Part shown: piece after piece, positions 19 through 31,445 of the stretch
Layout of the letters: every line of letters begins with the position of its first letter
How positions within the stretch are numbered: the first letter of the stretch is position 1
DNA from: an uncultured Chitinophagales bacterium
GTDB taxonomy: Bacteria; Bacteroidota; Bacteroidia; Chitinophagales; UBA2359
Direction: 5' to 3'
NCBI GenBank assembly: GCA_964480615.1
Contig: CAYZQX010000002.1
Coordinates: forward strand, 1 to 34,112
Length of the DNA stretch: 34,112 bases
Translations under genes and position numbers: made by a program
The notes under the pieces: model-generated
The model's input: the letters and a program-made list of their open reading frames with translations, nothing else
Told to the model about the DNA's origin: nothing
Databases searched by the model: none

Positions 19-178
19 CGATAGGGATAGCAGTGGATATCCTTTTAGGAGGCTATCGAATAGTATGACCTACTAATAGTTGTTAGAAGCTTAGTTGTAA
101 GTAAAAAACTAAATAATTATAGTGCTCAAGCCTCCTAAAAGATAGGAACGTATAGCCCAGGCCTGTAAGGCATCGCCA
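19..178 (-). repeat. Family-1 mosaic GC-rich element, copy A
   Basis: Read on the minus strand: TGGCGATGCC-TTACA-GGCC-TGGGCTATAC ... CACTGCTATCCCTATCG. It contains a perfect 12-bp stem (42-53 pairs with 130-141) around a 76-nt loop. It lies 89 nt downstream of the lptD stop, on the same strand. Confidence 0.9.
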
Positions 179-266
179 CAAATTTTAGTATTATCAGTTA
201 TTAAGCAGACCCTAAGTAAGGTGTCTAACCTCCAGCATCTAATTCTTTGTAGTGTACATCTATCAA

Positions 267-2957
267 TTAATAGTCATAGTCTTGCCAAGTTCTTCTCCTT
301 TCTAATTTCAAGTCTTTCAACATCTCAGAACGAACACGGATTGTAAAATCATAGCTTTTATACTGTCCTATAGGTCGCCAGTTAAAGGACATTTCCCAGC
401 AGTGGAGATCGCGGTGGATAGAGATAGCTGTACTGGATAATTTTTTTAATTCAAAGTCATAACCTGAAGTCATCGTAAGTTTCCATTTAGGAGTGATATT
501 TACTTCACCATTTCCAGTTATTACTTGTATCACCTTATAGGGCCTTGTTTCCGGATTGTAATTTTTTCGAATATCGAGCTTGTATGTCAGGCTAAGTTTC
601 CAGGGAATATCAAAATCTATGTATTCAGGAATGGTATTAGGTATTGTATTTACCACTATGTCCTCTAGTTGTTTCTTATTGCCATTGGGATCGCTTTCTG
701 ATTTGGTTTTTGTTTCATTTTTGGTGAGTGGCAAACTAAGACTTGTAGATAAATCCACGCTTTCAAATCTCAATATTTTTTGTCCATTGTTTATGGCATA
801 AGTCGATACCCTTTTCCCTGTGGCATCAGAGCCGTATGGGTCAAAACTAGCACCAAAATTCAAGGTTGTTTGATTAAATAATTTTGTGTTTCCAGAGAGT
901 GTTATCTTACTCATACTAAAAGAGTCTGCAATAAAATTATAGCCAGAATTGAGTGTTATATTGTCAAATATTGAGATCTTTTTGTATGATTCTATGGTAT
1001 CATTTTTAGATCTGACTTTGATCTCCAAGCTTTGACGAATGCCATAAGTCAATCCAAAATTATTTCCTAATGGCGGTCCTTGGTATATATTGTCTTGATA
1101 CTTGCTGTACCACTTGTATTTATCAGGAGTTTGTGAAGTATCTGTCTGTACTCGGTTATAATAGTTCCCCCAAAAATTAGTATAATCAGGTACATAATTG
1201 AGGGAGATACTAGGGCTTACGACATGGCGTATTGCATTGATTTTTTGGGATTTGAATTTTACTAGGCCATAAAAATTGGTGCTTAAAGCCAATGAAAAAT
1301 TGAGATCTACAGGCGCTTTGAATCCAACCTTTTTCAAGGATTTTAATACGCCGTAGGTAGTATCAATACTCAGTATTTCCCCATCACTTAGGGTCGTATC
1401 TATAATAGGTGTAGTATTGTCCCAATACTTAAAGATATAATCACCATACAACCTTTGATTAATGGTCATATTGGGATTTACAGTGATGTACTTAGCTAGC
1501 TTAGTGGAGGTACTTAGTTTTGCTGAATGACTAATACCATATTTGAATTTATCCCATATTTGATTGGAGAATATGATAGAGTCCGCATCACTCACTGAGT
1601 TTTTTAGGTTTGCATTGTAGTTCAAGGTAATATTCTCATACCATTTCAAATTGCCCACTCTAATTTTCCTTGCAAATGGGTTCTTGCGAGGCAAGGAAAA
1701 TGCCATTTCGGGCAATGTAACATCAGTGGTTTTTGCACTTATGTTTTGAAAAACTCGCATGGAAGCGGTAAGATTTGCATTTGACTTTCTAAATGTATGA
1801 CCATAGCTAATGCCAGAAGAATAGGTATTATTCGGGTTAGTCTGATTAATTAGAAAGCTGTTTCTATCATAAGTAGAGGAACCGAAATTTACATCGGTAC
1901 TAAATGTATTATTTGGCCAGCTTTTAGCATCTTGATTATGTGTCCAGGTAACCTTAAAGTCTTTTGATTTTTTGTAGCTGGTTTCGAGCGGATCATTCTC
2001 AATATTCACATTATAGCTCAAGGAGATATTACCCCTATATTTATAACGTTTAGCATAAGTACTTTTGGAGCTTAGTGACCATGACCCTTTGGTAAATACT
2101 TCACCTCTGATTGCAAGGTCTATATAATCACTAAATCCTAAATAGAAGCCACCATCCCGAAAATAAAAACCTTTGCTTGGGGATTCACCATAGGTAGGTA
2201 ATAATATACCGGAAGTGCGATCTTTTTGCAGTGGAAAAAGGCCAAATGGCAATACAAGTGGGGTAGGGATATCAGCAATATATAGTTCTGCAGGTCCCGT
2301 AGCTATGAGCTTATTGGGGATTACTTTTACCTTTTTCGATACAATCTTAAAATGTGGATGCTCTAGATCACATGTAGTATAATAGGCTTTGTATGCATAT
2401 AACTCATTGTTTTCATCTTTTTTTACTTTCTGTCCTACAAGGAATCCATCACCCTGCTGGGTTACTAATTGATTCACCGTACCTTTTTTAGTTTCAAAAT
2501 TATAGGCAATTTCATCAGAGCTAAACTTTTGATCACCATCCTGAAAGGTAGGTCGATTGATCTTTTGACCTAGGCTATCGAGTACATAAAAGGCTCGTAA
2601 AGTTTTAGTTTTTTGATTCATAATTATATAGCCGGCGTCGAGTCGTACATCTTTTTGCTGCATCCATGCCGCACCATATAGGTATATCTTTTGATCTATT
2701 AAGTCATAAATGATGGAATCTCTGGCCTCATAGGTAATAGGAGCGTCGAGGGTGTCCGTGGATATCTGGTAAGTAACAGGTTCGTTTCTTAGGGTGCTAT
2801 CTCTGGTTAGCTCCATTTCGGTGCTATCCGTCGCAATTGCTTGGGGTATGGGCTGTTTAGTTATGGAATCGGATGGAACAATGGCTTGCTGCCCAAAACT
2901 AATTAAATATTGGATTAAACAAATGGCTAAGATGATATGTCTAAAAATCGTTTTCAA
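267..2957 (-). CDS. lptD: LptD-like outer-membrane LPS-assembly protein (long Bacteroidota form)
   Basis: 896-aa ORF. The only in-frame start before the signal-like segment MKTIFRHIILAICLIQYLISFGQQ is TTG at 2955-2957. An OstA/LptD-N-like segment (TYEARDSIIYDLIDQKIYLYGAAWMQQKDVRLDAGYIIMNQKTKTLRAF) is followed by ~700 aa of alternating aromatic/polar beta-strand-like sequence with an aromatic C-terminus (WQDYDY). Confidence 0.7.
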   Translation of the reverse strand: MKTIFRHIILAICLIQYLISFGQQAIVPSDSITKQPIPQAIATDSTEMELTRDSTLRNEPVTYQISTDTLDAPITYEARDSIIYDLIDQKIYLYGAAWMQQKDVRLDAGYIIMNQKTKTLRAFYVLDSLGQKINRPTFQDGDQKFSSDEIAYNFETKKGTVNQLVTQQGDGFLVGQKVKKDENNELYAYKAYYTTCDLEHPHFKIVSKKVKVIPNKLIATGPAELYIADIPTPLVLPFGLFPLQKDRTSGILLPTYGESPSKGFYFRDGGFYLGFSDYIDLAIRGEVFTKGSWSLSSKSTYAKRYKYRGNISLSYNVNIENDPLETSYKKSKDFKVTWTHNQDAKSWPNNTFSTDVNFGSSTYDRNSFLINQTNPNNTYSSGISYGHTFRKSNANLTASMRVFQNISAKTTDVTLPEMAFSLPRKNPFARKIRVGNLKWYENITLNYNANLKNSVSDADSIIFSNQIWDKFKYGISHSAKLSTSTKLAKYITVNPNMTINQRLYGDYIFKYWDNTTPIIDTTLSDGEILSIDTTYGVLKSLKKVGFKAPVDLNFSLALSTNFYGLVKFKSQKINAIRHVVSPSISLNYVPDYTNFWGNYYNRVQTDTSQTPDKYKWYSKYQDNIYQGPPLGNNFGLTYGIRQSLEIKVRSKNDTIESYKKISIFDNITLNSGYNFIADSFSMSKITLSGNTKLFNQTTLNFGASFDPYGSDATGKRVSTYAINNGQKILRFESVDLSTSLSLPLTKNETKTKSESDPNGNKKQLEDIVVNTIPNTIPEYIDFDIPWKLSLTYKLDIRKNYNPETRPYKVIQVITGNGEVNITPKWKLTMTSGYDFELKKLSSTAISIHRDLHCWEMSFNWRPIGQYKSYDFTIRVRSEMLKDLKLERRRTWQDYDY

Positions 2958-2977
2958 AATATGGGCAAAAAAACACC

Positions 2978-2985
2978 TAAATTTG
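2978..2985 (+). promoter_or_regulatory. Bacteroidota-type -7 box TAAATTTG (TAnnTTTG)
   Basis: Exact consensus match, 24 nt upstream of TTG 3009 of the amidase gene. Confidence 0.4.
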
Positions 2986-2989
2986 CACT

Positions 2990-3003
2990 CGAAAAATTTT
3001 TCG
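2990..3003. promoter_or_regulatory. Perfect 14-bp palindrome CGAAAAATTTTTCG between the divergent lptD and amidase starts
   Basis: Read directly. It lies between the -7 box (2978-2985) and TTG 3009. Confidence 0.3.
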
Positions 3004-3008
3004 CAAAA

Positions 3009-4151
3009 TTGAAATTAAAAAATAACATTCTCACAATTTTATTTTGTGTTATGGGTATGACGGGGCTTTGGACAACCTCAGTTGCTCAGCCGTTTAACTA
3101 TGAATTAAAAAAAGTGGTGATTGATGCAGGTCATGGTGGCAAAGACCCTGGTGCGATGGCAAATAATGTGAGGGAAAAAGATGTGAATCTTGCAATAGCA
3201 TTGAAATTAGGAGATTATATTAAGGAAAATATTCCAGGGGTTTCAGTCATCTATACGCGGAGCACAGATGTTTTTATATCTTTAGATGAACGAGCAAATA
3301 TAGCAAATCGTGCCAAAGCCGATCTTTTTATTTCCATTCACTGCAATTCAAATGGCTCACCAGCCATCTATGGGACTGAAACTTATGTCATGGGAACCCA
3401 TAAAACCAAGGAAAATCTGGCAGTGGCTAAGCGTGAAAATGACGTAATCCTATTAGAAGACGATTACCTGAAAACCTACGGTGGCTTTGATCCAAAAAAG
3501 CCAGAGAGCCACATCATCTTCAGCCTCTATCAAAATGCCCATTTACAAGAAAGTTCCTTAATGGCCACCCTATTAGAAAATCAATTTAAAACAAGGGCTG
3601 GACGCAAGAGCAGAGGTGTTTCCCCAGCAGGATTTATTGTCCTCTATAAGTCTGCCATGCCATCCATTCTCGTCGAAACAGGTTTTCTTACCAATCCGGA
3701 TGAAGCAAAATTCTTAAAATCCGATGAAGGGCAAAGCCTAATTGCATCAGCGATCTATAGAACAATCAAAGAGTATAAAAGTAAAAAAGAAGGCAAAGGT
3801 GATGGTATTACTACCACACCAAAAAAAAAAGATAGTTCTGAGCCAGCAAATAAATCAAATGAACCAAAAATTACTTACACCTCACCTATAGAGCATAAAT
3901 CTGACAATAGTGGAGTTTCATTTAGAATACAATTATACAGTTCCTATGACCAATTTGATATAAGCAAAGCCAATATGGCAGACATACAAGAAATCGAAAT
4001 CGATACCACTAAAAATGGTATAAAATACTTCATGCTGCCTGGCAAATTTGATGACATAAAAAAAGCAGAAGCGAAACTTGAATTGCTTCTGAAAAATGGA
4101 TTTAAAAAAGCCAGCATTATTACCTACAAAAACAATATAAGACAAAATTAA
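3009..4151 (+). CDS. N-acetylmuramoyl-L-alanine amidase (Amidase_3 family) with C-terminal SPOR-like domain
   Basis: Amidase_3 motifs: VVIDAGHGGKDPGA, ADLFISIHCNS, PSILVETGFLTNPDE. The C-terminal ~75 aa (VSFRIQLYSSYDQF...KNGFKKASIITYKN) looks SPOR-like. The start is uncertain among ATG 2937 (ORF track), ATG 2961 and TTG 3009. I favour TTG 3009 because it gives a canonical signal peptide (MKLKNNILTILFCVMGMTGLWTTSVAQ), sits 24 nt after a TAAATTTG -7 box at 2978-2985, and avoids overlap with the divergent lptD start. Confidence 0.85.
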   Translation: MKLKNNILTILFCVMGMTGLWTTSVAQPFNYELKKVVIDAGHGGKDPGAMANNVREKDVNLAIALKLGDYIKENIPGVSVIYTRSTDVFISLDERANIANRAKADLFISIHCNSNGSPAIYGTETYVMGTHKTKENLAVAKRENDVILLEDDYLKTYGGFDPKKPESHIIFSLYQNAHLQESSLMATLLENQFKTRAGRKSRGVSPAGFIVLYKSAMPSILVETGFLTNPDEAKFLKSDEGQSLIASAIYRTIKEYKSKKEGKGDGITTTPKKKDSSEPANKSNEPKITYTSPIEHKSDNSGVSFRIQLYSSYDQFDISKANMADIQEIEIDTTKNGIKYFMLPGKFDDIKKAEAKLELLLKNGFKKASIITYKNNIRQN

Positions 4152-4236
4152 ATAGTTGCCCGAATACTTAATTCTTGGCTATAAGGATGCTATAACAGAT
4201 AATATTGTAATTTTACCGCTAATAATATTTTTTGAG

Positions 4237-5268
4237 ATGATAAAAATTGCAAACGAAGTAAAGGTTGGCATACTGGCAATAGCAGGATTGGTTTTGTTAT
4301 TTTTTGGCTATAAGTATTTAAAAGGGTCTGCATTTTTTAATAGCGAACACGTATATTACGCTGAATACAATGATGTAGGAGGGCTGCTTGTAGGTAACCC
4401 TGTACAAATACAAGGGGTGAAAGTGGGAACGGTGGAAAGCATCGACTTCATACAAGAAAACCCATCTGATACTAAAGTAAAAGTGGGTTTGCGCGTTTCT
4501 GATGATATTATGATCCCTAAGAAATCGAATGCTGATATAGTAAGTACAGGATTAATGGGCAACATTGTAGTCAGTATCATATATCCAGTAAAAGATTCAT
4601 TACCCAATCCATTGACTTATCTTGCCGATGGGGACTTGTTAAGTGGCAAACTATCAGGTGGTATGATGGAAACTATGACACAAGAAATTGCACCTATCAG
4701 AGATAAATCAACTAAATTAATGACCAGCTTAGATAGTGTATCAGTAGCCATTAATAATATACTGCGCTCCTCACGTATGGATAATACATTGACTAATGTC
4801 GATAAGAGCTTTGTTACATTAGAAAAAACATTGCATAACTTAAATGCAATCTCCGCACAAATGCAATCTATTATGAGCTCAGAAGCAGCCCATATTAAAA
4901 GTATAACAACTAATGCCGATCTAGTTTCTAGTAATTTTGTCCAGTCTAGTAAGAAATTAGATGGCATACTCGATCAAGCTGCTACCATCTCTGCAAATGC
5001 TGCTAAAGCTGATATCAGTGGTACCACTGAACAATTAAAGACTACTCTTGTCTCTACACAATCTGCTATTAAAGACTTACAGTCAATGCTTAATCAAATC
5101 AATAGTGGGCAAGGCTCAGCAGGTAAATTGATGAAAGATGAAGCCTTGTATGCTAATTTAGAAAGAGCCAGTGCCAATCTCGATAAGTTGTTCATCGACC
5201 TCAAGGAAAATCCTTCGGACTATGTTAATTTTTCATTAATTAAAATAGGAAGACGCGATAAAAAATAA
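4237..5268 (+). CDS. MlaD/MCE-family protein (outer-membrane lipid asymmetry)
   Basis: N-terminal TM segment (VKVGILAIAGLVLLFFGY) followed by an MCE-like core (VGGLLVGNPVQIQGVKVGTVESIDF) and a long coiled/low-complexity C-terminus. The ORF track starts at TTG 4156. ATG 4237 (MIKIANEVKVG...) gives the usual short N-terminus. Confidence 0.75.
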   Translation: MIKIANEVKVGILAIAGLVLLFFGYKYLKGSAFFNSEHVYYAEYNDVGGLLVGNPVQIQGVKVGTVESIDFIQENPSDTKVKVGLRVSDDIMIPKKSNADIVSTGLMGNIVVSIIYPVKDSLPNPLTYLADGDLLSGKLSGGMMETMTQEIAPIRDKSTKLMTSLDSVSVAINNILRSSRMDNTLTNVDKSFVTLEKTLHNLNAISAQMQSIMSSEAAHIKSITTNADLVSSNFVQSSKKLDGILDQAATISANAAKADISGTTEQLKTTLVSTQSAIKDLQSMLNQINSGQGSAGKLMKDEALYANLERASANLDKLFIDLKENPSDYVNFSLIKIGRRDKK

Positions 5269-5365
5269 GATATTATCCATCCAATTTTGCCTTCTATTTC
5301 AATTATTAATTCATCACATACATATTTTTCGAATTTGAATTTCAAGCGATTTCCTATCAGTGATC

Positions 5366-7291
5366 ATGCATACTAAAATATTAGTCAATTGCCTTAAATT
5401 TTTAATCTTTATTGGGGTGTATATGGCTATGCACACTGCCTGTATTCAAGCCCAAAACAACGATCAAAATATCCCTAAGGGCAAAGAGGTAATTATCCAA
5501 AATACCGAAGTACTTGAGTCTATAACAACAGACTCTATGGATGTGAAAATGCTCAGTGGCAATGTTGTACTGATACAAGGGGATGTAATCTTTGAATGTG
5601 ATAGTGCTGTCGTTTTTTTCTTAACTAATAATTTTGATGCCTACGGGAATATACATATAAATCAAAATGATACACTGAATATATATGGTGATAAATGCAA
5701 TTATCAGGGCAATGCCAGAAAGGCCAAGATGATAGGCAATGTTGTGCTTGAAGATTGTTCGGCTAGGGCTACTTCCAAGCGATTGGATTATTTTTTAGAT
5801 GAAGACCTCGCTATACTTACTGATAAAGTTTTTATCACTGATCAAAAAGTAAAAGTATATACGGATTCTCTTCGCTATACTACCGATCAAAAAAAAGCAA
5901 ACCTGTATGGCAAAAACAAATACATAGGCGAAGATGGAAATGTAATGGAGAGCCGTGTGATGGCTTACGATTTCCTCACACAACAGGGGAATTATGACCA
6001 ACGTGGAACGATTAAAAATGGCAATACAATAATTGAAAGCAATAAAGGTCAGTTTTTTGAGGCTGAAAAAAAAGCATTTTTTCAAGGTGATGTAGTGATT
6101 AATGATCCTGATTATAAACTCAAAACGGAAAGCCTAGAATATTTTACGGAACTCGATAAAGCCTTCTTTTCAGGGCCTACACGCATCGATCGTGATAGTA
6201 CCATCATTAAAACCAATCAAGGGTGGTATGATAAAAAAAATGAAATTGTAATTCTTAGCCAGGGGGCTGAAGTGTATTCTAAGGAGCAGACTGTGCTCGC
6301 CGATAGTATCTATTTTGATGATGCCGCAGGCAAGGGGTTTTGCTATCGAAAGGTTTCTTTGGAAGACACTCTTAACAAGACTTTGATTACAGGTGAGTAT
6401 GTAGAGTTCGAGCGTGCTACTGATTATATACTAGCGACCGATCATCCTATATTGCGCAATGTAAGTGGTGATGGTGACACATTATTTATGATGGCCGACA
6501 CATTGGTATCCATCGGCAATGGCAAAGAAAAGCCCCGCAAACTCAATGCATATAACGATGTGTGGATGTGGAGACCTGACTTTCAAGGTGTATGCGACTC
6601 TTTGTACTACTCCAGTGAGGACTCTTTGTTTCGTTTCTTTCGGTCGCCTATCTTATGGATGGACAGCACCCAACTTAGAGCCGATACAGTACTCCTACAC
6701 GCGCCTAATAATAAACCAAAGAATATAAAATTGAGAGAAAATTCCTTTGTCGTTAATTGGATTGAATCTATGATTTATAATCAGCTAAAGGGCAAAACAA
6801 TCGATGGATTTTTTAAGGACAATAAGCTGCATAAAATGCAGATCGATACCATGGCTCAAAGCATCTATTATGCGCAGGACGATGCTAAAAAATACATAGG
6901 AGCTAATAAGTCCAGCTCTGCATCTATTCACATTCTATTCAATAATGGAAAGGCTGAAAGGGTGAAATTTCTCACCGCACCAAAAGCAGAATTTGTACCT
7001 ATGGGCAAGATCAATCCTGAAACAAATAAACTGGAAGGCTTTAGTTGGTTGATTGATATGCGACCACTAAGTTTAGCTGATATGAAATATAAACGATCAC
7101 AGGGCTTGCACAAATCAATGATTGCACAGCAGATCAATGAAAAGAAAATAAGCGATACACAAGCCCAAAACTCTGCAACTGATCCAACTATAAAGGCCAG
7201 TGAAAGAAATAATGCTAAGCCAACTGAAACTGTACAGCCACAAATAGCAAAAGACAAATCAAAAAGAATGGGGACTCAACCAAAGAATTAA
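5366..7291 (+). CDS. OstA-like (LptA/OstA_N repeat) domain protein
   Basis: Signal-like N-terminus (FLIFIGVYMAMHTACIQAQ). OstA-type segments recur (MLSGNVVLIQGDVIFECDSAVVF, MIGNVVLEDCSARATSKRLDY, AFFQGDVVINDPDYKLKTESLEY, AFFSGPTRIDRDSTIIKTNQGWYD). The C-terminal tail is rich in Q/K/T. ATG 5366 lies two codons inside the GTG 5360 ORF start. Confidence 0.6.
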   Translation: MHTKILVNCLKFLIFIGVYMAMHTACIQAQNNDQNIPKGKEVIIQNTEVLESITTDSMDVKMLSGNVVLIQGDVIFECDSAVVFFLTNNFDAYGNIHINQNDTLNIYGDKCNYQGNARKAKMIGNVVLEDCSARATSKRLDYFLDEDLAILTDKVFITDQKVKVYTDSLRYTTDQKKANLYGKNKYIGEDGNVMESRVMAYDFLTQQGNYDQRGTIKNGNTIIESNKGQFFEAEKKAFFQGDVVINDPDYKLKTESLEYFTELDKAFFSGPTRIDRDSTIIKTNQGWYDKKNEIVILSQGAEVYSKEQTVLADSIYFDDAAGKGFCYRKVSLEDTLNKTLITGEYVEFERATDYILATDHPILRNVSGDGDTLFMMADTLVSIGNGKEKPRKLNAYNDVWMWRPDFQGVCDSLYYSSEDSLFRFFRSPILWMDSTQLRADTVLLHAPNNKPKNIKLRENSFVVNWIESMIYNQLKGKTIDGFFKDNKLHKMQIDTMAQSIYYAQDDAKKYIGANKSSSASIHILFNNGKAERVKFLTAPKAEFVPMGKINPETNKLEGFSWLIDMRPLSLADMKYKRSQGLHKSMIAQQINEKKISDTQAQNSATDPTIKASERNNAKPTETVQPQIAKDKSKRMGTQPKN

Positions 7292-7481
7292 TCTCTTGAC
7301 CCAATAAAAATACACTGAATTTTTTGTTCTTTGCTTGCCGAATAGTACAATGTAAATTCAGCTATAAAGTGATCAACTTATTTCCATTTAATATTCTTGT
7401 CTTACTTAATATGCCTAGATTATGGTGTAATAAAATTATGTATCTTTAGTATTAAACGATAATTGATTGATTTCTTTCTAT

Positions 7482-7626
7482 TGGCGATGCCTGCGGCCCG
7501 GGCTATGCGGGGCTACGCTAGCGCTTCGGTACTGAATTGGCAGGCTGCTTACATTCATATACACCCACAGTATCAGCAGCGGTTTCCAGCCTGCCAATTC
7601 AGTACAAACCCCTCCTATCCCTATCG
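7482..7626 (+). repeat. Family-1 mosaic GC-rich element, copy B
   Basis: TGGCGATGCCTGCGGCCCGGGCTATGCGGGGCTACGCTAGCGCTTCG, then a perfect 19-bp stem (7529-7547 pairs with 7587-7605, 39-nt loop), then AAACCCCTCCTATCCCTATCG. It lies 191 nt downstream of the OstA-like gene stop, on the same strand. Confidence 0.9.
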
Positions 7627-7793
7627 TGGTGAGCACGGAATTAAATGCAAATATTACCACATAATCAAAACATAATGCTAGGATGTATAATAAAAAACTA
7701 CTATTTTTGTATCTACATTGATAATGAGATCGAGCTAAGTGGCTCTTGATTTTTTAATAATAAGTCAGTGTTTTTGAATGTCCAGTTTCAATG

Positions 7794-7905
7794 CGAAAGG
7801 GATAGTAGTGGTTAAGTCAGTAGCGCAGCGGATGACCGAGGCGATAGCCGAGCCACGAATAGCCCGACCCTCCTAGTGCGCATAAGCACTAGGAGGGATT
7901 CGCCC
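7794..7905 (-). repeat. Family-1 mosaic GC-rich element, copy F (variant with long 5' hairpin)
   Basis: Read on the minus strand: GGGCGAATCC, a 12-bp GC-rich stem (7868-7879 pairs with 7886-7897, 6-nt loop), GTCGGGCTATTC, a GTGG...CCAC-closed module, then TACTATCCCTTTCG. It converges on copy B. Confidence 0.85.
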
Positions 7906-7973
7906 TAATGAAGATGAAACAAGTGACCTTGCTTATTTATTATCTCATAATAAACCGAACAAATTTTTTTTAC

Positions 7974-18243: not shown

Positions 18244-18323
18244 TCAAAGAACAACAAATAAGTCCGATTAAGCTTCCTTGCTTGTAACTAGGGTTTGCTA
18301 AATAACTCATAAGATTGCAATTA

Positions 18324-18456
18324 TGGCGATGCCTGCGGCCCGGGCTATGCGGGGCTACGCTAGCGCTTCGGTACTGGGGTGGCGGGCTTTCTGCATAATT
18401 GAATCAAAAAAATTGAAAGCCCGCCACCCCAGCACAAACCCCTCTTATCCCTATCG
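18324..18456 (+). repeat. Family-1 mosaic GC-rich element, copy C
   Basis: The first 52 nt are identical to copy B. A perfect 18-bp stem of different sequence follows (18374-18391 pairs with 18415-18432, 23-nt loop), then ACAAACCCCTCTTATCCCTATCG. It lies 81 nt downstream of the M42 peptidase stop, on the same strand. Confidence 0.9.
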
Positions 18457-18465
18457 CGTTTAACG

Positions 18466-18527
18466 ATGTACGATTCACGATAGGCTATCGCGATTTATGA
18501 TTCACGATTTTAGATTTACGATACTGA
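18466..18527. repeat. Degenerate tandem heptamer tract, about 9 units of ATTYACG
   Basis: ATGTACG ATTCACG ATAGGCT ATCGCG ATTTATG ATTCACG ATTTTAG ATTTACG ATACTGA, read directly and starting 10 nt after the 3' box of copy C. Confidence 0.75.
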
Positions 18528-18550
18528 AGCTGGTTGCAGTAACTAGTTAA

Positions 18551-18612
18551 AAAGTCTAGTGTCCATTATCCAGTGTCTAGTTAAAGCGATTTACGATAAT
18601 ACAATAGGATTA
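18551..18612 (+). repeat. Family-2 repeat (AAGTCTAGTGTCCATTATCCAGTGTCTAGTTAAAGCGATTTACGATAATACAAT...)
   Basis: About 90% identical to the reverse complement of 34041-34112, apart from one exact 7-nt indel (AGTCTAG). It has internal 7-nt periodicity (GTGTCCA/TTATCCA/GTGTCTA). Weaker copies lie at 18666-18696 and 18814-18838. Confidence 0.85.
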
Positions 18613-19091
18613 TCAATATTGGAGTTTTATCATAAAAATATTTATGACCGCAGATATGACTTATCAAAGTCTAGCGTCCACGATCTAGTAGCTAAGATCT
18701 ATTTATGAAGAATCTGACTCCTTCAGTATTTGATTACTGTTGTATTAATTGCACTGCAATATTACCGCATCTTCGGCTTGAATATATTAATTTAAACTGG
18801 CTATTAATATACTAAGTCTAGTGTCAATTATCATTGTGCGAAATTCAGTTTTAAGGATTATTACAAAAGCATTTTGAATAGAATCCGTTATAGATTTCTA
18901 TTAATGAAATACAAAATATTATTTACCTCCCCCTCCACGAAAATTGTTCTAATAATTTATAAAATGTTTTGCCTTCAGCACTCAATAGATAGTATATACA
19001 AACATATTTCAATATGTATTGTCAACCATAAGCTTCCTTAGGAACAAAAATTATACATTTTTACCAATATTTTACTAATCAAAAAGGTATA

Positions 19092-20288
19092 TTAATTTTT
19101 TTGGAAGATAAAAATATATTCGTGCTTAAATACATAAAATCCCCCTGACAGGGCCCTGTAGCGCCAGAGTTCTTTTTGGTTGAGTTTTGCCTTGGTATCT
19201 TCAAAATTTTTAATGATGGTTGACTTTAGCTTGTAGCCTCTTTTAGTAAACTCTTGCATGGTGAAAAACGCTAAAGGTATCCATTCTCCTTGCTCATATT
19301 TATCACTGATGATCAATGCACAAAATCGATCTTTGTCTAACACCTTATATACATTTTCAGCAAGTTTGCCCATCTTCTGTAGAAAGGATTCCAGGTCAAT
19401 GGCATTAGATAAGTCTGAGGGCTCTTCACTAAATTTTATAATATCCCAATAAGGCGGATGTAGTATGGCCAGTTGGATTGATTTAATACCTTGTTCTTGT
19501 AGCGCATTAGGCATATTAATCTCGGTACAATCGCCATTAATGATATGCGTTCTGGTTTGGTAGGAAGAAACAGTCTTACTAATAAGCGCATTCGCATGGT
19601 CGGCTATATGGGGCAATAGCTCTATACCTATTACATTGCGTCCTAATTTTTTTGCTTCTATTAAAGTTGTGCCACTGCCTGCAAATGTGTCTAAGACCCA
19701 TTCATCCGTCTTGGTGTATCTTCTGATTAGTTGATTGGGAATTTGTGGTATAAAATTGCCCCAGTACCCAGCATTGTGTACACCACTATTATCGCGCTTT
19801 TCTATTACCCATAGACTATCGGTAAGAATATCCTCATAATCTTTCCACCTATTGAGATTAATATCGTTGTATTTAGTGGTTCTTTCGACGGTGAGTGCTT
19901 TGATAAGCCGCTGGATATAGTATTTTGTTCGTTCTAATGTTTTGGTTTCACTTATCTGTATGAGTTCTTTGATTATATATTGTATGTCTTCTTGATTTAA
20001 GTATTCAGCGTATTGTATATCTTTTGTCTTTGAGGATTTTTTTTGGGTGTTTTTTTTTGTCTCACTTTTGGTTGAAATACTATTAAGTATGGACTTTATG
20101 CCTAGCTGTATTTTGTCCTGTTGTTCTAATATCAACAATGATTCTAATGCACTAGTGATGCGGTTATAAGGGCTAGTATTGTGTTGTTTTTCATTTTCGT
20201 CGATAGGTTGATTGATCATATATGGGATCCTTATAATGGTTATTTGTCCTTGAGTATAACTGATAATTAATAGCTCTTGGAGCTTCAA
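19092..20288 (-). CDS. SAM-dependent DNA (N6-adenine or N4-cytosine) methyltransferase, orphan, with ~160-aa N-terminal extension
   Basis: GNFIPQIPNQLIRRYTKTDEWVLDTFAGSGTTLIEAKKLGRNVIGIEL (SAM-binding motif I, as in N6_N4 MTases) is followed ~70 aa later by ILHPPYWDII (a (D/S/N)PPY-type motif IV). The TTG start at 20288 sits 24 nt after a TAGATTTG -7 box; the alternative is ATG 20219. No restriction-enzyme-sized ORF lies on either side. Confidence 0.8.
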   Translation of the reverse strand: MKLQELLIISYTQGQITIIRIPYMINQPIDENEKQHNTSPYNRITSALESLLILEQQDKIQLGIKSILNSISTKSETKKNTQKKSSKTKDIQYAEYLNQEDIQYIIKELIQISETKTLERTKYYIQRLIKALTVERTTKYNDINLNRWKDYEDILTDSLWVIEKRDNSGVHNAGYWGNFIPQIPNQLIRRYTKTDEWVLDTFAGSGTTLIEAKKLGRNVIGIELLPHIADHANALISKTVSSYQTRTHIINGDCTEINMPNALQEQGIKSIQLAILHPPYWDIIKFSEEPSDLSNAIDLESFLQKMGKLAENVYKVLDKDRFCALIISDKYEQGEWIPLAFFTMQEFTKRGYKLKSTIIKNFEDTKAKLNQKELWRYRALSGGFYVFKHEYIFIFQKN

Positions 20289-20311
20289 ATATATTTATTT
20301 TTTTTTAGATA

Positions 20312-20319
20312 CAAATCTA
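20312..20319 (-). promoter_or_regulatory. -7 box TAGATTTG
   Basis: Exact TAnnTTTG on the minus strand, 24 nt upstream of TTG 20288 (methyltransferase). Confidence 0.4.
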
Positions 20320-20357
20320 TTAGTTTAAGCGTATAAGATTGTATAAGGCGGTTTATG

Positions 20358-20472
20358 GACAAGGGATCGCAGCGAGCACGCAATGGAGCGCAGCGCAATG
20401 AAGTAAAGCGGAGAGCCCGGCCCTGAGCGGAGTTTGGCGACCTAAGAAGCCAAAATCCGCTCAGGGTGGCCC
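20358..20472 (-). repeat. Family-1-related element, copy G (divergent)
   Basis: Read on the minus strand: GGGGCCA, an 11-bp stem (20421-20431 pairs with 20456-20466) enclosing a 6-bp inner stem (20433-20438 pairs with 20449-20454), GCCGGGCTCTCC, GCGCTGCGCT-type box shared with copy F, then GCGATCCCTTGTCC. It lies 134 nt downstream of the stop at 20606, on the same strand. Confidence 0.7.
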
Positions 20473-20605
20473 CAAATAATTGTATTGATCATCTAAATCA
20501 GTTTCCAAGTTAATTTTCGTATAGCAAAAAAAAGACATCAGCGATTGCCAATGTCTTCTTAAGAACAGAATAAATAATCTTGTGTGTGATTTTTATCTCA
20601 AAGAA

Positions 20606-25665: not shown

Positions 25666-25809
25666 TATGCACCATTACAAGTAATTATATGACCTATTAA
25701 TCGCTAATCAAGGCGAGTACAATTAATAAAACAGGGGATATAAAAGCTCACCAATAAATATTTTACTTATTGAAATTTTTGAGTTAATAAATATAGCTTA
25801 AAGATATTA

Positions 25810-25992
25810 TGGCGATGCCTCCGGCCCGGGCTATACAGGGCTTTCTGATTTTATTAGTTTTTTAAAGGACATCAGAATCTTCGCAAGCTCGATTTGCTGA
25901 CGCTCCGGTACTGATCTGGCAGGCTTTCGGAAATATTATTTCAAAGCGTTGAAAGCCTGCCAGTTCAGTACAAACCCTTCCTATCCCTATCG
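25810..25992 (+). repeat. Family-1 mosaic GC-rich element, copy D
   Basis: TGGCGATGCCTCCGGCCCGGGCTATACAGGGC, then an inserted module with a 7-bp stem (25843-25849 pairs with 25871-25877). A 21-bp stem with one T:T mismatch follows (25908-25928 pairs with 25951-25971), then AAACCCTTCCTATCCCTATCG. It lies 145 nt downstream of the PNGase F-like gene stop, on the same strand. Confidence 0.9.
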
Positions 25993-26576
25993 TTTAAAAC
26001 TAGGTTTGTAATATTATCTAACTTTTCATTAAGACTTTATAATGAGACGCTAATTTATATAGCGAGTATTTTATAATTCTGGCTATTATTAGTAATGGCA
26101 TTTTTTTATTAATGGTTAATTTGATTTCTTTGTAATCAGAAAATCAGTTAATAAATTGAGTTTTTGCTTTCATAGGGATATTAGCATTTATCATATCAAG
26201 CGAATATAGCGAACATAAAACATACATTAATCGTAATTTTTTTTATTAGAAATAGCAAGAATCTATAACTATAACAATGAAACATTGTCAGTTGAATATC
26301 TAAATTTTAGTAACAATAAATATTGCTTTGCTACTTGAAATGAAAAGATGATATATAATTAGGGTATATCTGTAACCATTGGGTGGATAGAGTTATATAT
26401 ACATTAGTCAGAAATTGTACTGCGGATAGAAGAAATACGACCTCTAACTGAAGATTCCTCTTCCATCAAGAAAATACTATTTGGCGTTATCTCCGTACCC
26501 TCCCATAGATTTGTTGCTAGGGCTGAAACTGTAAAATTGAATTGTTTAAATTTTTTTTAACAAATTTTGCGAGAAT

Positions 26577-26687
26577 AATAGTAAAAAATCTATTCAAGAA
26601 TAGTAAAAAGATAGTAAATGTATAATAAGTAGTATTTTAACAATTATTAGTAATAGTAATACTATTATATGGAATAGTTATAGTATC
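26577..26687 (+). promoter_or_regulatory. Array of (A)ATAGTA-type direct repeats overlapping the ABC operon promoter
   Basis: Units are GAATAATAGTAAAAAA (from 26574), GAATAGTAAAAAG (26598), ATAGTAAAT (26611), TAAGTAGTA (26625), TTAGTAATAGTAATACTA (26647) and GAATAGTTATAGTATC (26672). Spacings are roughly multiples of 10-11 bp. Confidence 0.35.
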
Positions 26688-26691
26688 TTTG
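26684..26691 (+). promoter_or_regulatory. -7 box TATCTTTG
   Basis: Exact TAnnTTTG, 26 nt upstream of ATG 26717 (ABC exporter operon), at the end of the ATAGTA repeat array. Confidence 0.45.
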
Positions 26692-26716
26692 TGGGGTAAA
26701 ATAATGGTAAGAATAA

Positions 26717-28366
26717 ATGGGAAAAAAAAGCTATAGTTTTGAAAAACTATTCAAATTGTTGAAATTAGAGCGCCAAGAGATTCTGGCAATTTACTTTTAT
26801 GCCATTTTAAGCGGATTAATACAGCTAAGTTTGCCATTAGGCATACAGGCAATATTGGGATTGGTCTTGGGTGCTACAATGGTTACTTCGGTCTATATGC
26901 TTATAATTATTTTGATAATTGCAGTATTTATAGTTGGTTATTTACGTGTAAATAAGATGATGATTATAGAAAAGATTCAACAAAAAATATTTGTTAGGAT
27001 TGCATTTGAGTTTGCTGAAAAAATTCCCAACCTAGATCTAAAAGCTGCAGATCATTATTATTTGCCTAATAAGATAAATCATTTTTTTGATATTCAAAAT
27101 ATTCAAAAAGGGATTTCAAAATTACTGTTAGATATTCCTGGTGCTTCTATTCAAATTGTTTTAGGACTACTTCTAATTTCATTATACCATCCACTATTTA
27201 TACTGTTTTCCTTATTATTAATTTTTATGCTTTGGGTAATTTTTAGAATTACTGCCAAACAAGGGTTAGAAACTAGTATAATGGAAAGCAATTATAAATA
27301 CGAAGTTGCAGCTTGGCTTGAAGAGATAGGACGAGTCATTAAATCCTTCAAATATAGTCAGGGTACTAACCTAAATTTAATTAAAGCCGATGAAAAGTCA
27401 TTAAATTACATTAATGCTCGTACGGCACATTTCAAAGTATTATTATTTCAATTCAAATCCTTGGTTTTTTTTAAAGTTTGTGTAACAGCTGTTATGTTGC
27501 TTCTGGGCACCTACTTGTTATTTGAACAGAAAATAAATATAGGTCAGTTTGTAGCTGTTGAAATAGTTATTCTTTCCATAATTAGTGCTATGGAAAAGCT
27601 AATAGCAAGTTTAGAAAATGCCTATGATGTGATTGCTGGTTTATATAAGATAGATTCATTGCTTGAATTGGACAGTGAAAAAGATGGTAAGTTTATATTG
27701 CAATCTAGTGAGTTGAATATCGAAATAAGTAATTTGAATTTTTCCTATACTGACACACTAGAGTTGTTTAAAAATATATCGACTAATATAAGTGCAAATA
27801 GCGTAACCGCAATATCAGGTGAAGAGAATAGTGGTAAATCCACTTTCCTTAAGCTATTGACAGGTAGTTATAAAAACTTTAAGGGGAATATACTTTTTAA
27901 CCAAATTCCTATACAAAACTATTCACTCCAAAGTATTCGATCTAACACAGGTATATTATTGTACGAACAGGATTTATTTGAAGGCTCTTTATTCGACAAT
28001 ATTACTTTAGGGAATACAAATATAGAGATGGAGCATATATTAGATGTTGCTAAGAAATTAGGAATTGAAAATTTTCTATCTTCTTTTCCGCATTCGTATG
28101 AAACCAAAATAGAACCGATGGGGCAAAAAATGCCTTCATCATTAATAAAAAAAATACTATTGCTTAGGGCATTAGTAAATGACCCCATACTGTTGGTATT
28201 AGAAGAACCTTGGGCAGGCTTTAATGAAGATATTCAACAAAAAATCCAAAACTATTTGTTAGAAATTTCATCGAATAAGACCATAGTTATTACTACCAAT
28301 GATCGAGAATTTATTAAAAAGTGTAATCTTCATATTAACCTGAAAAATGGAACCATTACAAAATAG
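26717..28366 (+). CDS. ABC exporter (fused TMD-NBD, type I exporter fold, no C39 peptidase domain) with degenerate ATPase motifs
   Basis: The ~300-aa N-terminal domain has six hydrophobic segments. The NBD has an intact Walker A (SGEENSGKST) and Q-loop (YEQD). The signature is MPSSL instead of LSGGQ, Walker B is LLVLEEP instead of hhhhDE, the D-loop is WAGFN, and the H-loop position is N (VITTND). It lies 6 nt upstream of the HlyD gene. Confidence 0.85.
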   Translation: MGKKSYSFEKLFKLLKLERQEILAIYFYAILSGLIQLSLPLGIQAILGLVLGATMVTSVYMLIIILIIAVFIVGYLRVNKMMIIEKIQQKIFVRIAFEFAEKIPNLDLKAADHYYLPNKINHFFDIQNIQKGISKLLLDIPGASIQIVLGLLLISLYHPLFILFSLLLIFMLWVIFRITAKQGLETSIMESNYKYEVAAWLEEIGRVIKSFKYSQGTNLNLIKADEKSLNYINARTAHFKVLLFQFKSLVFFKVCVTAVMLLLGTYLLFEQKINIGQFVAVEIVILSIISAMEKLIASLENAYDVIAGLYKIDSLLELDSEKDGKFILQSSELNIEISNLNFSYTDTLELFKNISTNISANSVTAISGEENSGKSTFLKLLTGSYKNFKGNILFNQIPIQNYSLQSIRSNTGILLYEQDLFEGSLFDNITLGNTNIEMEHILDVAKKLGIENFLSSFPHSYETKIEPMGQKMPSSLIKKILLLRALVNDPILLVLEEPWAGFNEDIQQKIQNYLLEISSNKTIVITTNDREFIKKCNLHINLKNGTITK

Positions 28367-28372
28367 TAGAAA

Positions 28373-29689
28373 ATGAATAATTACCAAATTCCACTGAAGG
28401 CTTTTGATGCCATTTTAATGATTCATGCTAAGCCAAGAATTAGATATTATTTTTGGATTATTATAGCTTTACTTTTGTTGATTTTATTTTTACCATGGAC
28501 ACAAAATATAAAGTCGAAGGGAAATATCACAACATTAAAGCAAGAACAAAGACCTCAGAATATCAATGCTTTGATCCCAGGTAAAATAGATCAATGGTTT
28601 GTAAAAGAAGGGGATTTTGTATTAAAAGGGGATACTATATTGATTTTGTCAGAGATAAAAGAGGATTATCTTGATCCAAATTTAATTGGTCGCACTCAAA
28701 ATCAATTGGATGCCAAAGAAGGTAGTATTGAGTTTTATAAGGGTAAGATCACTTCAACACAATTGCAAATAAGTAATCTTAAAGAAGCCAAGCGATTAAA
28801 GATTGATCAATTGAAAAATAAAGCATTACAGCTTGAGAATAAATTGATAGGAGAGAAAGCTGAATTAGAAGCTAATCAAAATGAGGTTCAGCTATTAAAA
28901 AACCAGTACGAAAGACAATTAAAAATGTATGAGGAAGGTTTAGTATCACAAACTCAGTTGCAACAGCGCAGTATTGTATTTCAGAATGCGATGGCTAAGC
29001 TAACAATCACTGAAAATAAGATAGCGCAAACCAATCAAGAGATAATAAATAATCGCATTGAACAGAATAGTGTAGAACAAGAATATACCGAAAAAGTAAA
29101 TAAAGCTGAAGGCGATAATTTTCAAAATTTAAGTCAAATTGCATCCACTCAATCCGATGTGGCTAAGTTACAAAATCAGGTAAGTAATTATACCATCAGG
29201 AATAGTAGATATGTAGTCACTGCACCTCAAGATGGTCAAGTAATACAAGCTAATAAAGCAGGTATAGGTGAGATACTGAAAGAAGGTGAATCGATAGCCT
29301 TAATCGTGCCTAATGCCTTGGAGTATGCCGTAGAAATGTATGTTAATCCAGTTGATTTACCATTAGTAGATATTGGTCAAACTGTTCGCTTTACATTCGA
29401 TGGGTTTCCAGCGATTGTATTTAGTGGTTGGCCAGAACAAAGTTATGGAACCTTTTCAGGGAAAGTTGTTGCATATGAAAATGCCATAGGAGAAAATGGA
29501 AAATATAGAGTATTAGTAGCTGAAGATAGGGCCTATAAGAAGTGGCCTAAGGAACTGCGAATTGGTGCTGGAGCTAAGTCTATATTGCTTCTAAAAGATG
29601 TCCCTATATGGTATGAAATATGGAGGAATATTAACGGGTTTCCTAATGATTTTTATAAAGTTGAACAAGAATTAATAGATAAAAAATAG
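28373..29689 (+). CDS. HlyD-family membrane fusion (periplasmic adaptor) protein
   Basis: N-terminal TM (YYFWIIIALLLLILFLPW), lipoyl-like hairpin (VKEGDFVLKGDTILIL), a long coiled-coil (Q/E/K/L-rich, aa ~110-270), and a C-terminal beta-barrel segment. Confidence 0.85.
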   Translation: MNNYQIPLKAFDAILMIHAKPRIRYYFWIIIALLLLILFLPWTQNIKSKGNITTLKQEQRPQNINALIPGKIDQWFVKEGDFVLKGDTILILSEIKEDYLDPNLIGRTQNQLDAKEGSIEFYKGKITSTQLQISNLKEAKRLKIDQLKNKALQLENKLIGEKAELEANQNEVQLLKNQYERQLKMYEEGLVSQTQLQQRSIVFQNAMAKLTITENKIAQTNQEIINNRIEQNSVEQEYTEKVNKAEGDNFQNLSQIASTQSDVAKLQNQVSNYTIRNSRYVVTAPQDGQVIQANKAGIGEILKEGESIALIVPNALEYAVEMYVNPVDLPLVDIGQTVRFTFDGFPAIVFSGWPEQSYGTFSGKVVAYENAIGENGKYRVLVAEDRAYKKWPKELRIGAGAKSILLLKDVPIWYEIWRNINGFPNDFYKVEQELIDKK

Positions 29690-29694
29690 TTGTA

Positions 29695-31089
29695 ATGAAA
29701 ACAGCAGTATTAGCATTGTTTATAATTAATTTTAGTCATTGCCTTTTCGCTCAATATAACACCTTCAATGCTGAAGAATTTTTATCTATCGTGCGTAGTT
29801 ACCACCCCGTGGTAAGGTTGGCAAATATTAATATTGAGCAATCTGATGCTGATATTTTAGTGGCGCGCAACATTTTTAATCCGATAATTAGTAATTATAT
29901 AGCTAATAAGACCATTAATAATATTGAGTATTACAACTATCTTCATCCACAAATTACAATTCCTACATGGTTTGGTATTAATGTATCAGCAGGGCTAGAG
30001 AATTTATCAGGTAATCGTTTTGATCCTAGTGAAACGATAGGACAATCGAGTTACGTTGGAGTCAGTATTCCATTACTCAATAATTGGGTCATTGATAAAC
30101 GGAGAGCATACTTGCAAAAGGCCAAATTGTATAATGAGTTGGCAATTATTGATCAGCAAAAGGTTGTTAATGATGTATTGAAAGATGCAATTACTACCTA
30201 TTGGGAATGGGTTAATGCTTATGAGAGTTATGAAATTGTAGGGAGAAATTATGACATTTCTCAACAGCGATTTAATTTTGTTAAGCAAACAGTAATAAAT
30301 GGGGAAAGACCTGCTATTGATTCTATTGAAGCACTTACACAGTTGCAAAGTATGGAGTTTCTAAAGAATGAACGATGGTTTCAATTTCAAAATAAGGGAA
30401 TCGAGTTATCTGTTTTTTTGTGGAATGAAAATAATATGCCTTTTGACTGGCAAGAAAATATTATTCCGCAAAGTGGTTGGGAAAATCAAGAGAATATAGA
30501 GAAATTTATTTTACCATTGTCCGATTTGCTACAAAATGCCAAGGAGTTTCATCCAGAAATTAGAATGTTTACCCAAAAAACTTATCTCCTAAATATTGAA
30601 AAGAAATTAAAATTTCAAGAGCTTTTCCCAAAACTAGATTTCAATTATTATCATTTCAACAAAGGCCTAAATCAATTTAGTACTGATGGATTATTTTTTC
30701 AAAACAATTTCCAGTACGGGTTAAAATTTGAAATGCCATTATTTCTTTCTAAGAGTAGAGGTGAGTATAAAAAAGCGAAGCTCAACTTACAAGCAAATTT
30801 TATTATGCAAGCCCAAAAAGTTCAAGGAATAGAACAAAAGGTCGAATTATATTATAACCAATACCTCAACTTAAAAAAACAAATTATGGTGCAATCCAAT
30901 ATGCTCCAGAATTTTAGAAAATTGCTAAAAGCAGAGGAGACATTGTTTCAAAATGGGGAGAGTTCCCTTTTTCTTATTAATAGTAGAGAAAATAAAGTAT
31001 TAGAAACTGAAAATAAATTAGTGGAATTAAAAACCAAATATTTCAAGTCTATTTACGATTTACAATGGGCAGCAGGTCTCTTGCAATAA
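29695..31089 (+). CDS. TolC-family outer-membrane efflux protein
   Basis: Signal peptide MKTAVLALFIINFSHCLFAQ. The 464-aa protein shows two-fold repeat organisation of coiled helices typical of OEP/TolC. It is the last gene of a 5-6-nt-spaced three-gene operon. Confidence 0.8.
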   Translation: MKTAVLALFIINFSHCLFAQYNTFNAEEFLSIVRSYHPVVRLANINIEQSDADILVARNIFNPIISNYIANKTINNIEYYNYLHPQITIPTWFGINVSAGLENLSGNRFDPSETIGQSSYVGVSIPLLNNWVIDKRRAYLQKAKLYNELAIIDQQKVVNDVLKDAITTYWEWVNAYESYEIVGRNYDISQQRFNFVKQTVINGERPAIDSIEALTQLQSMEFLKNERWFQFQNKGIELSVFLWNENNMPFDWQENIIPQSGWENQENIEKFILPLSDLLQNAKEFHPEIRMFTQKTYLLNIEKKLKFQELFPKLDFNYYHFNKGLNQFSTDGLFFQNNFQYGLKFEMPLFLSKSRGEYKKAKLNLQANFIMQAQKVQGIEQKVELYYNQYLNLKKQIMVQSNMLQNFRKLLKAEETLFQNGESSLFLINSRENKVLETENKLVELKTKYFKSIYDLQWAAGLLQ

Positions 31090-31203
31090 GGCTAGGTTTT
31101 AAGAACAGCATAATAAAAAATATTTTTATAATTGCCAATCATAATTGTATCTTCTTAAACAAGTTAATTAGGGCTTGTTTAATAACTCGTAATTAATCAA
31201 TTT

Positions 31204-31445
31204 TGGCGATGCCTAAAGACCTATGTTACTTGCAACTTTATTTTTGCTATAGGTAGCAATAACCTGCACTATCGCTTGGTTTTACGCTATACCCTCGCTA
31301 CTTGCTGGAAGGTATATTTTCTATGAGAAGCAAATACCTGCGCATAGCTTGGTTTCTCGCTGTTGGAGTGCATTGGAATTTTCTATTTTTCTTAGTGGCA
31401 ACAAGAATCTATGCTTACGCTTGATTTGCTGCAATCCCTATCACG
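31204..31445 (+). repeat. Family-1 mosaic element, copy E (expanded, internally triplicated, degenerate 3' box)
   Basis: It starts with TGGCGATGCC and ends with GCAATCCCTATCACG. The interior holds three ~63-67-nt related units (31226-31288, 31298-31361, 31366-31432), each ending in a CTTGGTTT(T/C)(A/T)CGCT-like box. It lies 115 nt downstream of the TolC gene stop, on the same strand. Confidence 0.75.

Follow-up and report, generated by a model that had tools for sequence, protein, structure and literature searches.

The 34,112-nt stretch of DNA analysed here (the window; contig CAYZQX010000002.1, positions 1 to 34,112) comes from an uncultured Chitinophagales bacterium and carries, in its intergenic spacers, a short structured element that is a member of the Flavo-1 repeat family of Bacteroidota (RF01705). 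A first-pass annotation, made from the sequence alone, had described seven copies (A to G) of an unrecognised mosaic element of one architecture that it could match to no Rfam family, and had named a match to a described RNA family among the findings that would refute it. Such a match is essentially what we found, and the claim of an unrecognised element fails because the family is already known. The single architecture holds for A to F, which have a common core, and not for G, which is a degenerate fragment. For the window alone, this is the rediscovery of a known motif. What is modestly new is that the elements are sub-threshold members of the family in a deep-branching uncultured member of the Bacteroidota and in Mucilaginibacter, that the full unit, as the seed flanks show and the Rfam model does not, is a closed three-way junction, and that its apex takes long nested modules.

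Read on the strand of the Rfam model (hereafter the Flavo strand), good copies follow the scheme (N)CGAU-A-GGG-A-UA-GNA-[stem, variable apex, stem]-GNA-UA-G-CCC-GR-[hairpin P1]-AUCGCC. The two ends pair as a closing helix, P0, of 4-6 bp (GCGAU/AUCGC in the window copies). The main arm, P2, is built from GGG-A-UA-GNA-stem on one side and stem-GNA-UA-G-CCC on the other, with an apex that tolerates any hairpin or insertion, and P1 is a side hairpin of free length. The junction with both P0 and P1 is present in copies A-D and F, while E has no P0. RNAfold draws it unaided for A, C and some copies of the relatives introduced below. The core, GGGA-NN-RNA...GNA-N'N'-GCCC with NN pairing to N'N', is found in A-F and at no other place in the window.

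At the Rfam gathering thresholds (42 bits for Flavo-1), no match was obtained in the window. At E-value thresholds, its best match was Flavo-1 on copy A (38.3 bits, E=7e-5). This match covers the full model, has 76 nt inserted in the terminal loop and reads against the strand used in the first-pass annotation. The other copies gave no Rfam Flavo-1 match, B and C not even when searched singly. A scan of genome and metagenome contig collections with the box pattern returned, besides chance matches, five true relatives from Mucilaginibacter gilvus, M. pankratovii, an uncultured Mucilaginibacter and one Bacteroidota metagenome-assembled genome (MAG), and Flavo-1 was the best structured Rfam match for the four Mucilaginibacter copies (24.6-27.4 bits). 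The same scan of viral-contig and plasmid collections gave no match. We used two covariance models, R1, which was made in this analysis, and R2, which comes from 10 published Flavo-1 seeds with their flanks alone. R2 recovers each of A-F along its full model length, with E-values from 2e-12 to 3e-3 and the best background match at 9.5 bits (E=0.79), and it scores the relatives at 38-52 bits. Copy G, at 5.5 bits, is not a Flavo-1 member by this measure. The setting agrees with the family as well, as the copies are many and the host is a member of the Bacteroidota whose window encodes LptD_2 and proteins sorted by the type IX secretion system (T9SS).

The published seeds carry the same anatomy. 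A large subgroup of the seed alignment reads GCGU[UG]A-GGGAU[AU]-GNAGY...GNA[UA]AGCCCGACC, which is the window core, and judged by sequence the window elements belong to this subgroup, whose seeds read GCGUKA-GGGAUW-GNAGY...GNAWAGCCCGR. At the base of P2 the seeds have GGGAUW, 2-bp steps around a GNA/GNA 3x3 internal loop, a bulged A that faces a bulged G, and ...WAGCCCG; A-F and the five relatives all carry GGG-A-(UA/UC)-RNA...GNA-(UA/GA)-G-CCC, as in seeds like GCGUUAGGGAUAGUAGU...ACGUAUAGCCCGG. In all 10 seeds with flanks, GCCCGA is followed by a P1 hairpin (CCC-GUA-GGG in a F. johnsoniae seed, for example), after which comes CACGC, AACGC or AAUGC, complementing a 5' GCGUG, GCGUU or GCAUU as P0, and for 9 of the 10 RNAfold gives the P0-closed junction. 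Some of the seed rows come from short NC_ records, which we take to be Bacteroides plasmids.

The window elements and Flavo-1 thus agree in phylum, in being multi-copy and intergenic, in an apex of variable length, in an identical basal architecture of near-identical sequence (GGGAUW-GNA-2 bp...2 bp-GNA-WA-G-CCC-GR), in the P1 side hairpin and P0 closing helix of seeds with flanks, and, for copy A and the Mucilaginibacter copies, in a second GNA/GNA loop. They differ in P0 (GCGAU/AUCGC in the window and GCGUK/MACGC in the seeds), in a P1 that is usually GCC-GNA-GGC, in scores below the gathering score (38.3 of 42 bits for A), and in host, a deep-branching uncultured member of the Bacteroidota with relatives in Mucilaginibacter rather than Flavobacteriia. 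They fall below the Rfam threshold because the Rfam model covers P2 only and has the consensus of the other seed subgroup (UAGCC-CCGAUU...GCGGGA), and because the copies carry long apical insertions (40-140 nt in the window). As these copies show, the current model misses part of the family, in divergent lineages and in copies with apical insertions. The true Flavo-1 unit is larger, with a closing helix and a side hairpin that were both in the original seed flanks, and many more copies would be annotated by a model that included P0 and P1. With such a model, the choice between an RNA gene and a selfish repeat of the repetitive extragenic palindrome (REP) type would become testable genome-wide, through orientation, strain polymorphism and co-occurrence with candidate enzymes.

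The first-pass annotation had proposed conserved boxes separated by stems variable in length and sequence, with gain and loss of modules, as in a structured mosaic repeat. This stands, and compensatory changes back the pairing. In an alignment of the core from six window copies and five relatives, 94.8% of cells are standard pairs, five pairs have changed on both sides and none on one side only, and pairing falls to 30-40% in slid controls. For these 11 sequences, none of 500 shuffles reached the observed covariation score. Examples of compensatory change are P0 itself, which is GCGAA/UUCGC in C, and UC/GA in place of UA/UA in E; the next helix varies as GU/AC, GG/CC, AG/CU, AC/GU and GC/GC, and P0 covaries within and between the families (GCGUG/CACGC, GCGUU/AACGC, GCAUU/AAUGC, GCGAU/AUCGC, GCGAA/UUCGC). 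Any two of the apical hairpins of B, D and F are separated by 2-5 changes that affect both arms and only one that affects a single arm. As every core pair of the window family is Watson-Crick, either strand could take up the fold. A hammerhead or other small ribozyme at the junction was considered and set aside, with junction strands of 0-2 nt, far below any known catalytic core.

Which strand matters is a separate question, and the "element strand" of the first-pass annotation is probably inverted, as judged from the purine character of the unpaired positions and the count of G-U and A-C pairs in the seeds. Conserved positions that stay unpaired (the two GNA/GNA loops, the GNA triloop of P1, and the A and G bulges) are purines when read on the Flavo strand and pyrimidines when read on the strand of the first-pass annotation. 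Across 58 published seeds read on the Flavo strand there are 38 G-U and 16 A-C pairs, 12 of the A-C pairs lying in one column pair; this excess leans towards the model strand partly as an ascertainment effect, since the seeds were gathered with covariance models. Within the window family the same comparison favours the Flavo strand for D, E and G and the other strand for P0 of B and F and for the Mucilaginibacter stem, and the minimum folding energies of the two strands are mixed across copies.

The strand bias and the strong covariation, with stems free to vary in length, are also what would be expected if Flavo-1 were a structured non-coding RNA family (Rfam class Gene; small RNA, sRNA), each copy being transcribed on the Flavo strand, with the GNA-loop junction as a protein-binding scaffold and the hypervariable P2 apex giving each copy its own function. 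Purine-rich unpaired positions on one strand only, the G-U excess in the seeds, and the position of the relatives' copies, which in 5 of 5 cases are followed on the Flavo strand, after 57-200 nt, by a gene start, all speak for it. Against it, 6 of the 7 window copies face a convergent gene at its 3' end, seven sRNA genes of one family in 34 kb would be unusual, and no shared Bacteroidetes-type promoter (TAnnTTTG) was seen upstream of the window copies or the ten seeds when these were inspected by eye, with no formal scan. Moreover, intrastrand template switching in DNA can also yield compensatory changes in hairpin arms. In F. psychrophilum, many Flavo-1 matches are untranscribed, and matches occur in either orientation, sense or antisense, relative to transcribed regions (PMC9723704). 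We consider an RNA family a serious rival explanation of these copies, if a rather unlikely one.

The reading that we favour, tentatively and with a little less than even confidence, is that of a non-autonomous repeat that a trans-acting protein recognises as a folded single strand. To a family of sRNA genes or terminators we prefer a selfish repeat that resembles REPs and the bacterial interspersed mosaic elements (BIMEs) and acts as single-stranded nucleic acid, because the element is multi-copy and intergenic, stands in no fixed relation to genes, breaks assemblies, differs between strains and has no U-tract. The nesting of foreign modules in the apex and the small accessory modules beside some copies also fit such a repeat, as do the lack of copies at the syntenic locus of the nearest relative, the seed rows from short NC_ records and the few Flavo-1 RNAs that Weinberg et al. 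report from Spirochaetes (PMC2864571). Non-coding and non-autonomous, it would spread and turn over in intergenic DNA; the junction and its purine loops would form the recognition platform for the protein, which would read the folded single strand, as DNA or RNA, in the form of the Flavo strand, opposite to that of the first-pass annotation. Any effects on neighbouring transcripts, for example as an exonuclease barrier in a 3' untranslated region (UTR), would be by-products.

Several observations weigh against this preference. Flavo-1 was described as an RNA motif by Weinberg et al. 2010 (PMC2864571) and judged likely to be RNA, and the G-U excess on one strand fits a role as RNA equally with one as single-stranded DNA. 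The flanks of the seven copies show no target-site duplication, terminal inverted repeats other than the 5-bp P0 are absent, and neither the window nor the other loci examined contain an open reading frame (ORF) resembling a transposase or RAYT (HUH/Y1 motif). No simple presence/absence polymorphism was seen, with B, C, E and part of G being identical or nearly so in other samples. Finally, when 23 published REPs of RAYT subclass 2.6 were aligned locally to 22 Flavo-1 seeds, the best shuffle p was ~0.06, which is not significant. In the literature, Flavo-1 is annotated 'COV V' (PMC2864571), is among the most abundant sRNA families (PMC9029176), and has no assigned function (PMC2864571, PMC9029176).

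A more specific form of the repeat hypothesis, which we regard as doubtful, makes the closed junction (P0 as a 'double foot', P1 and P2) the substrate of a Bacteroidota-specific enzyme acting on folded single-stranded DNA. This would be an HUH/RAYT-like protein or another nuclease or recombinase, which would copy the unit into intergenic DNA and let foreign hairpins nest in the apex. If true, Flavo-1 would be the equivalent of REP/BIME in Bacteroidota, and the geometry of its recognition would be new. RAYT subclasses 2.4 and 2.6 of Bacteroidetes are associated with 'double foot' and 'atypical' REPs (Quentin et al. 2018, PMC6006769). Subclass 2.6, which is Bacteroidetes-specific, is the obvious candidate for the trans-acting protein and found no support here. 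No ORF of this kind occurs in the window or the other loci examined, and the sharing of CGATAG or GCTAGCGCT that some of its REPs seemed by eye to show was not borne out by the shuffle-controlled alignment; alignments of these REPs to Flavo-1 were no better than those of subclass 2.7 controls.

Compared with REPs and BIMEs in general, the window elements are likewise high-copy extragenic palindromic units in both orientations, with a bulged, GC-rich stem of three G-C pairs at the base, a short conserved basal 'foot' whose complement stands at the other end (P0 resembles a double foot) and a BIME-like mosaic association with other small modules. They differ in the foot, which is CGAU with the base (G)CGAU-A-GGG instead of GT[AG]G placed 0-2 nt 5' of the hairpin (no copy has GTAG or GTGG at the foot), in folding as a three-way junction and not as a single hairpin, and in unit length (70-190 nt versus 20-40 nt). 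No RAYT gene was found in the window or the other loci examined, which do not extend to the full host genome, and published subclass 2.6 REPs have no significant similarity to Flavo-1. With ERIC, Correia and RUP elements they share an intergenic position, structure, internal indel variation and likely co-transcription with neighbouring genes; in contrast to those, they have no long terminal inverted repeats, target-site duplication or insertion sequence (IS) partner, and they are conserved across orders of one phylum, compensatory changes included.

Being short, intergenic and present in many copies of differing length, the elements could also be thought of as an ordinary miniature inverted-repeat transposable element (MITE), a deletion derivative of an IS mobilised through terminal inverted repeats, in which case the parental IS would share the termini GCGAUAGGG... 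and ...AUCGCC. We reject this because terminal inverted repeats and target-site duplications are absent. Nothing but the 5-bp P0 complement is common to the two ends, a search of the window and the other loci examined gave no transposase whose ends match, and, unlike in MITEs, there is a covarying internal structure across Bacteroidota orders. A MITE origin is in our view very improbable. An integron attC site, which was suggested by the conserved base, the variable apex and a GTTTAAC after D, was likewise rejected, as the neighbours are housekeeping genes with no cassette array, the copies have mixed orientations and an RYYYAAC-like flank is present at D alone.

The copies have no fixed gene context. 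In the window, 6 of the 7 follow a gene to which the Flavo strand is antisense, a bias that is not significant (two-sided p ~0.13). Four of the five relatives' copies, from Mucilaginibacter and the Bacteroidota MAG, lie in divergent regions. The window arrangement would suit a 3'-UTR element acting on the strand of the first-pass annotation, which is the sense strand for those six genes, as a terminator or as protection from 3' exonucleases in the manner of enterobacterial REP/BIME and ERIC, and the Watson-Crick core would allow the fold to form on that strand too. However, the structure is followed by no U-tract on either strand, a terminator scan detected none of the elements (no GC-rich hairpin with a direct U-run), and the genome has canonical hairpin-plus-U terminators, one of which (20560-20529, minus strand) stands between the upstream gene and copy E. 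We reject a terminator role on account of the missing U-tract and this terminator upstream of E. With the relatives' copies lying in divergent promoter regions or upstream of genes, the orientation bias short of significance, and the conserved loops being pyrimidine on the strand in question, we judge a 3'-UTR element improbable as a whole.

High copy number is evident both within the window (6-7 copies per 34 kb) and from contigs of the same organism in other samples that terminate within the element (L001 at both ends, L049 and L054), as fits a high-copy repeat. The first-pass annotation had the copies in almost every long intergenic spacer; of the eight spacers that reach 250 nt, six hold one. 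Strains also differ: past the end of the M42 peptidase gene, locus D in those represented by L001 and L049 has another spacer and another copy. In the nearest relative (65% protein identity), the 13-kb syntenic locus has no copy.

Copy A (16..181, plus strand) is a complete three-way junction with P0 GCGAU/AUCGC, P1 GCC-UGUAA-GGC, and a P2 with two GNA/GNA loops and an AT-rich insertion of ~76-104 nt at its apex. The RNAfold minimum-energy structure of the plus strand gives the junction, and beside the Rfam match (38.3 bits, model positions 1-76) R2 scores it at 33.0 bits (E=1.7e-6). Copy C (7791..7908, plus strand) is the best R2 match, at 57.3 bits (E=2.2e-12); its junction is complete, with the compensatory P0 variant GCGAA/UUCGC and, as in the published seeds, a 12-bp hairpin as P1 after GCCCGACCC, and appears in the minimum-energy structure of both strands. 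It is also present in L001, where it differs by one stem substitution.

Copies B, D and F, all on the minus strand, have complete junctions, and a repeat search of the window connects these three directly. B (7479..7629) has a perfect 19-bp apical hairpin, GTACTGAATTGGCAGGCTG / CAGCCTGCCAATTCAGTAC, and an R2 score of 28.0 bits (E=2.7e-5); it belongs to repeat families D1 and D2 and recurs in L001. D (18321..18459; R2 26.8 bits, E=5e-5) is identical to B over its first 52 nt on the strand of the first-pass annotation, and its apical hairpin differs from that of B at five positions, each changed in both arms. F (25807..25995) has the apical-hairpin module of the B/D type together with an extra AT-rich insertion and scores 19.6 bits with R2 (E=2.9e-3) and 69.6 bits with R1, of which F is itself a training sequence. 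Copy E (20355..20476, plus strand; R2 30.1 bits, E=8.4e-6) has the P2 core, with the compensatory UC/GA in place of UA/UA, and a long P1 hairpin of 19 positions; the closing helix is missing. It is identical in L050, a contig of another sample.

Copy G had been described as a 242-nt copy, whereas the covariance models match it weakly and partially, over 31201-31277 (minus strand) alone. There the P0 halves GCGAU... and ...AUCGCC and a P1-like stretch are kept and the GGG/CCC stem is lost (R1 17.7 bits, E ~0.009; R2 5.5 bits, E=7). An outlying box fragment, CAATCCCTATCA, lies at 31432-31443 (plus strand). The interior of the supposed copy, 31275-31431, is an imperfect direct duplication, CCTGCACTATCGCTTGGTTTTACGCT and CCTGCGCATAGCTTGGTTTCTCGCT. 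L054 breaks off inside the 242-nt unit, and its beginning within this duplication suggests that the latter is another repeated unit.

The boxes of the first-pass annotation can now be placed in the fold. Its "5' box" is the 3' half of P0 together with the P1 hairpin, and reading the core on the Flavo strand shows that the GGGCTAT box pairs with the CTATCCC box. The composite 5' pattern, TGGCGATGCCT-N5-12-GGGCTATRC, has four exact occurrences (A, B, D and F) where none is expected. The 3' box had been given as long and general; its general part is CTATCCCTATCG alone (10 matches with up to 2 mismatches against 1.5 expected, covering A, B, C, D, F and G), and the longer form, ACAAACCCYTCY..., is confined to B, D and F. 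A further string, GGCGATGCC, is exact at five sites (A, B, D, F and G). The small GCC-nnn-GGC hairpin, attributed to A-D, is found instead in A, B, D and F, and the long stems attributed to F and G are in C (12 bp) and E (19 positions, one mismatch). A GC content of ~55-60% was right for B-E (57-62%) and not for A (39%), F (47%) and G (41%).

Small accessory modules accompany some copies. The module TAGGGYYTGYTWAATAAC matches exactly at 197-214 (minus strand) by A, 18289-18306 (plus strand) by D and 31169-31186 (plus strand) by G, in each case 17-22 nt outside the P0 end and in constant relative orientation. With up to three mismatches it has four matches against 0.5 expected, a number that none of 100 shuffles reached, and it makes up repeat family D5. 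A sequence resembling it, ACTAGGTTTGTAATATTATC, follows copy F at 26001-26020. A second repeat family, AGTCTAGTGTCCA, is found at 1-18 (plus strand), 18553-18565, 18668-18680 and 18815-18827 (plus strand), and 33946-34109 (minus strand), and both ends of the window lie inside its copies. One of these adjoins element A (TCTAGTGTCCAGTTAAAG/CGATAGGG), and another, at 34074-34108, contains a 7-nt tandem array, ACTAGAC x5. The flank AACTGGACATT, after copy C, is related to this family. Beside copy D, the segment 18460-18530 has ~7 (A/T)CGAT motifs with a TRF period of 14 nt, and it includes a perfect palindrome, CGATAGGCTATCG (18478-18490), that looks like a pair of element feet set head to head.

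The DNA of the window is of Bacteroidota type, with a GC content of 35.7%, and its genes are housekeeping ones. They encode LptD, an amidase, MlaD, pyrB/pyrR, an M42 peptidase, an extracytoplasmic function (ECF) sigma factor, an ABC/HlyD/TolC exporter, ribF and T9SS-sorted proteins. The nearest homologues of the M42 peptidase, at ~60% identity, are in Chitinophagales, Flavobacteriales and Aureispira. Between the oppositely oriented copies D and E, in an AT-rich segment (18244-20605), lies an orphan N6/N4 DNA methyltransferase gene (19092-20288, minus strand); its start is present with copy E in sample ERR8482632 (L050), and the flank on the D side differs in the L001 and L049 strains. The spacer ahead of the ABC/HlyD/TolC exporter operon (25666-26716), 1 kb long and 29% GC, contains no ORF and no recognised RNA besides copy F. 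On the syntenic contig of the nearest relative (JGI Ga0114938_1000200, L048; 7620-8545), pyrB is called as fragments of 201 and 58 aa, which suggests a frameshifted gene or a sequencing error. Finally, an identical ECF sigma factor protein is encoded on a 1-kb contig, JAHZTJ011981676.1 (L053), of assembly GCA_020051655.1, in which contig numbers reach many millions, and the window organism may be a contaminant or associate in this large eukaryotic or metagenomic assembly.

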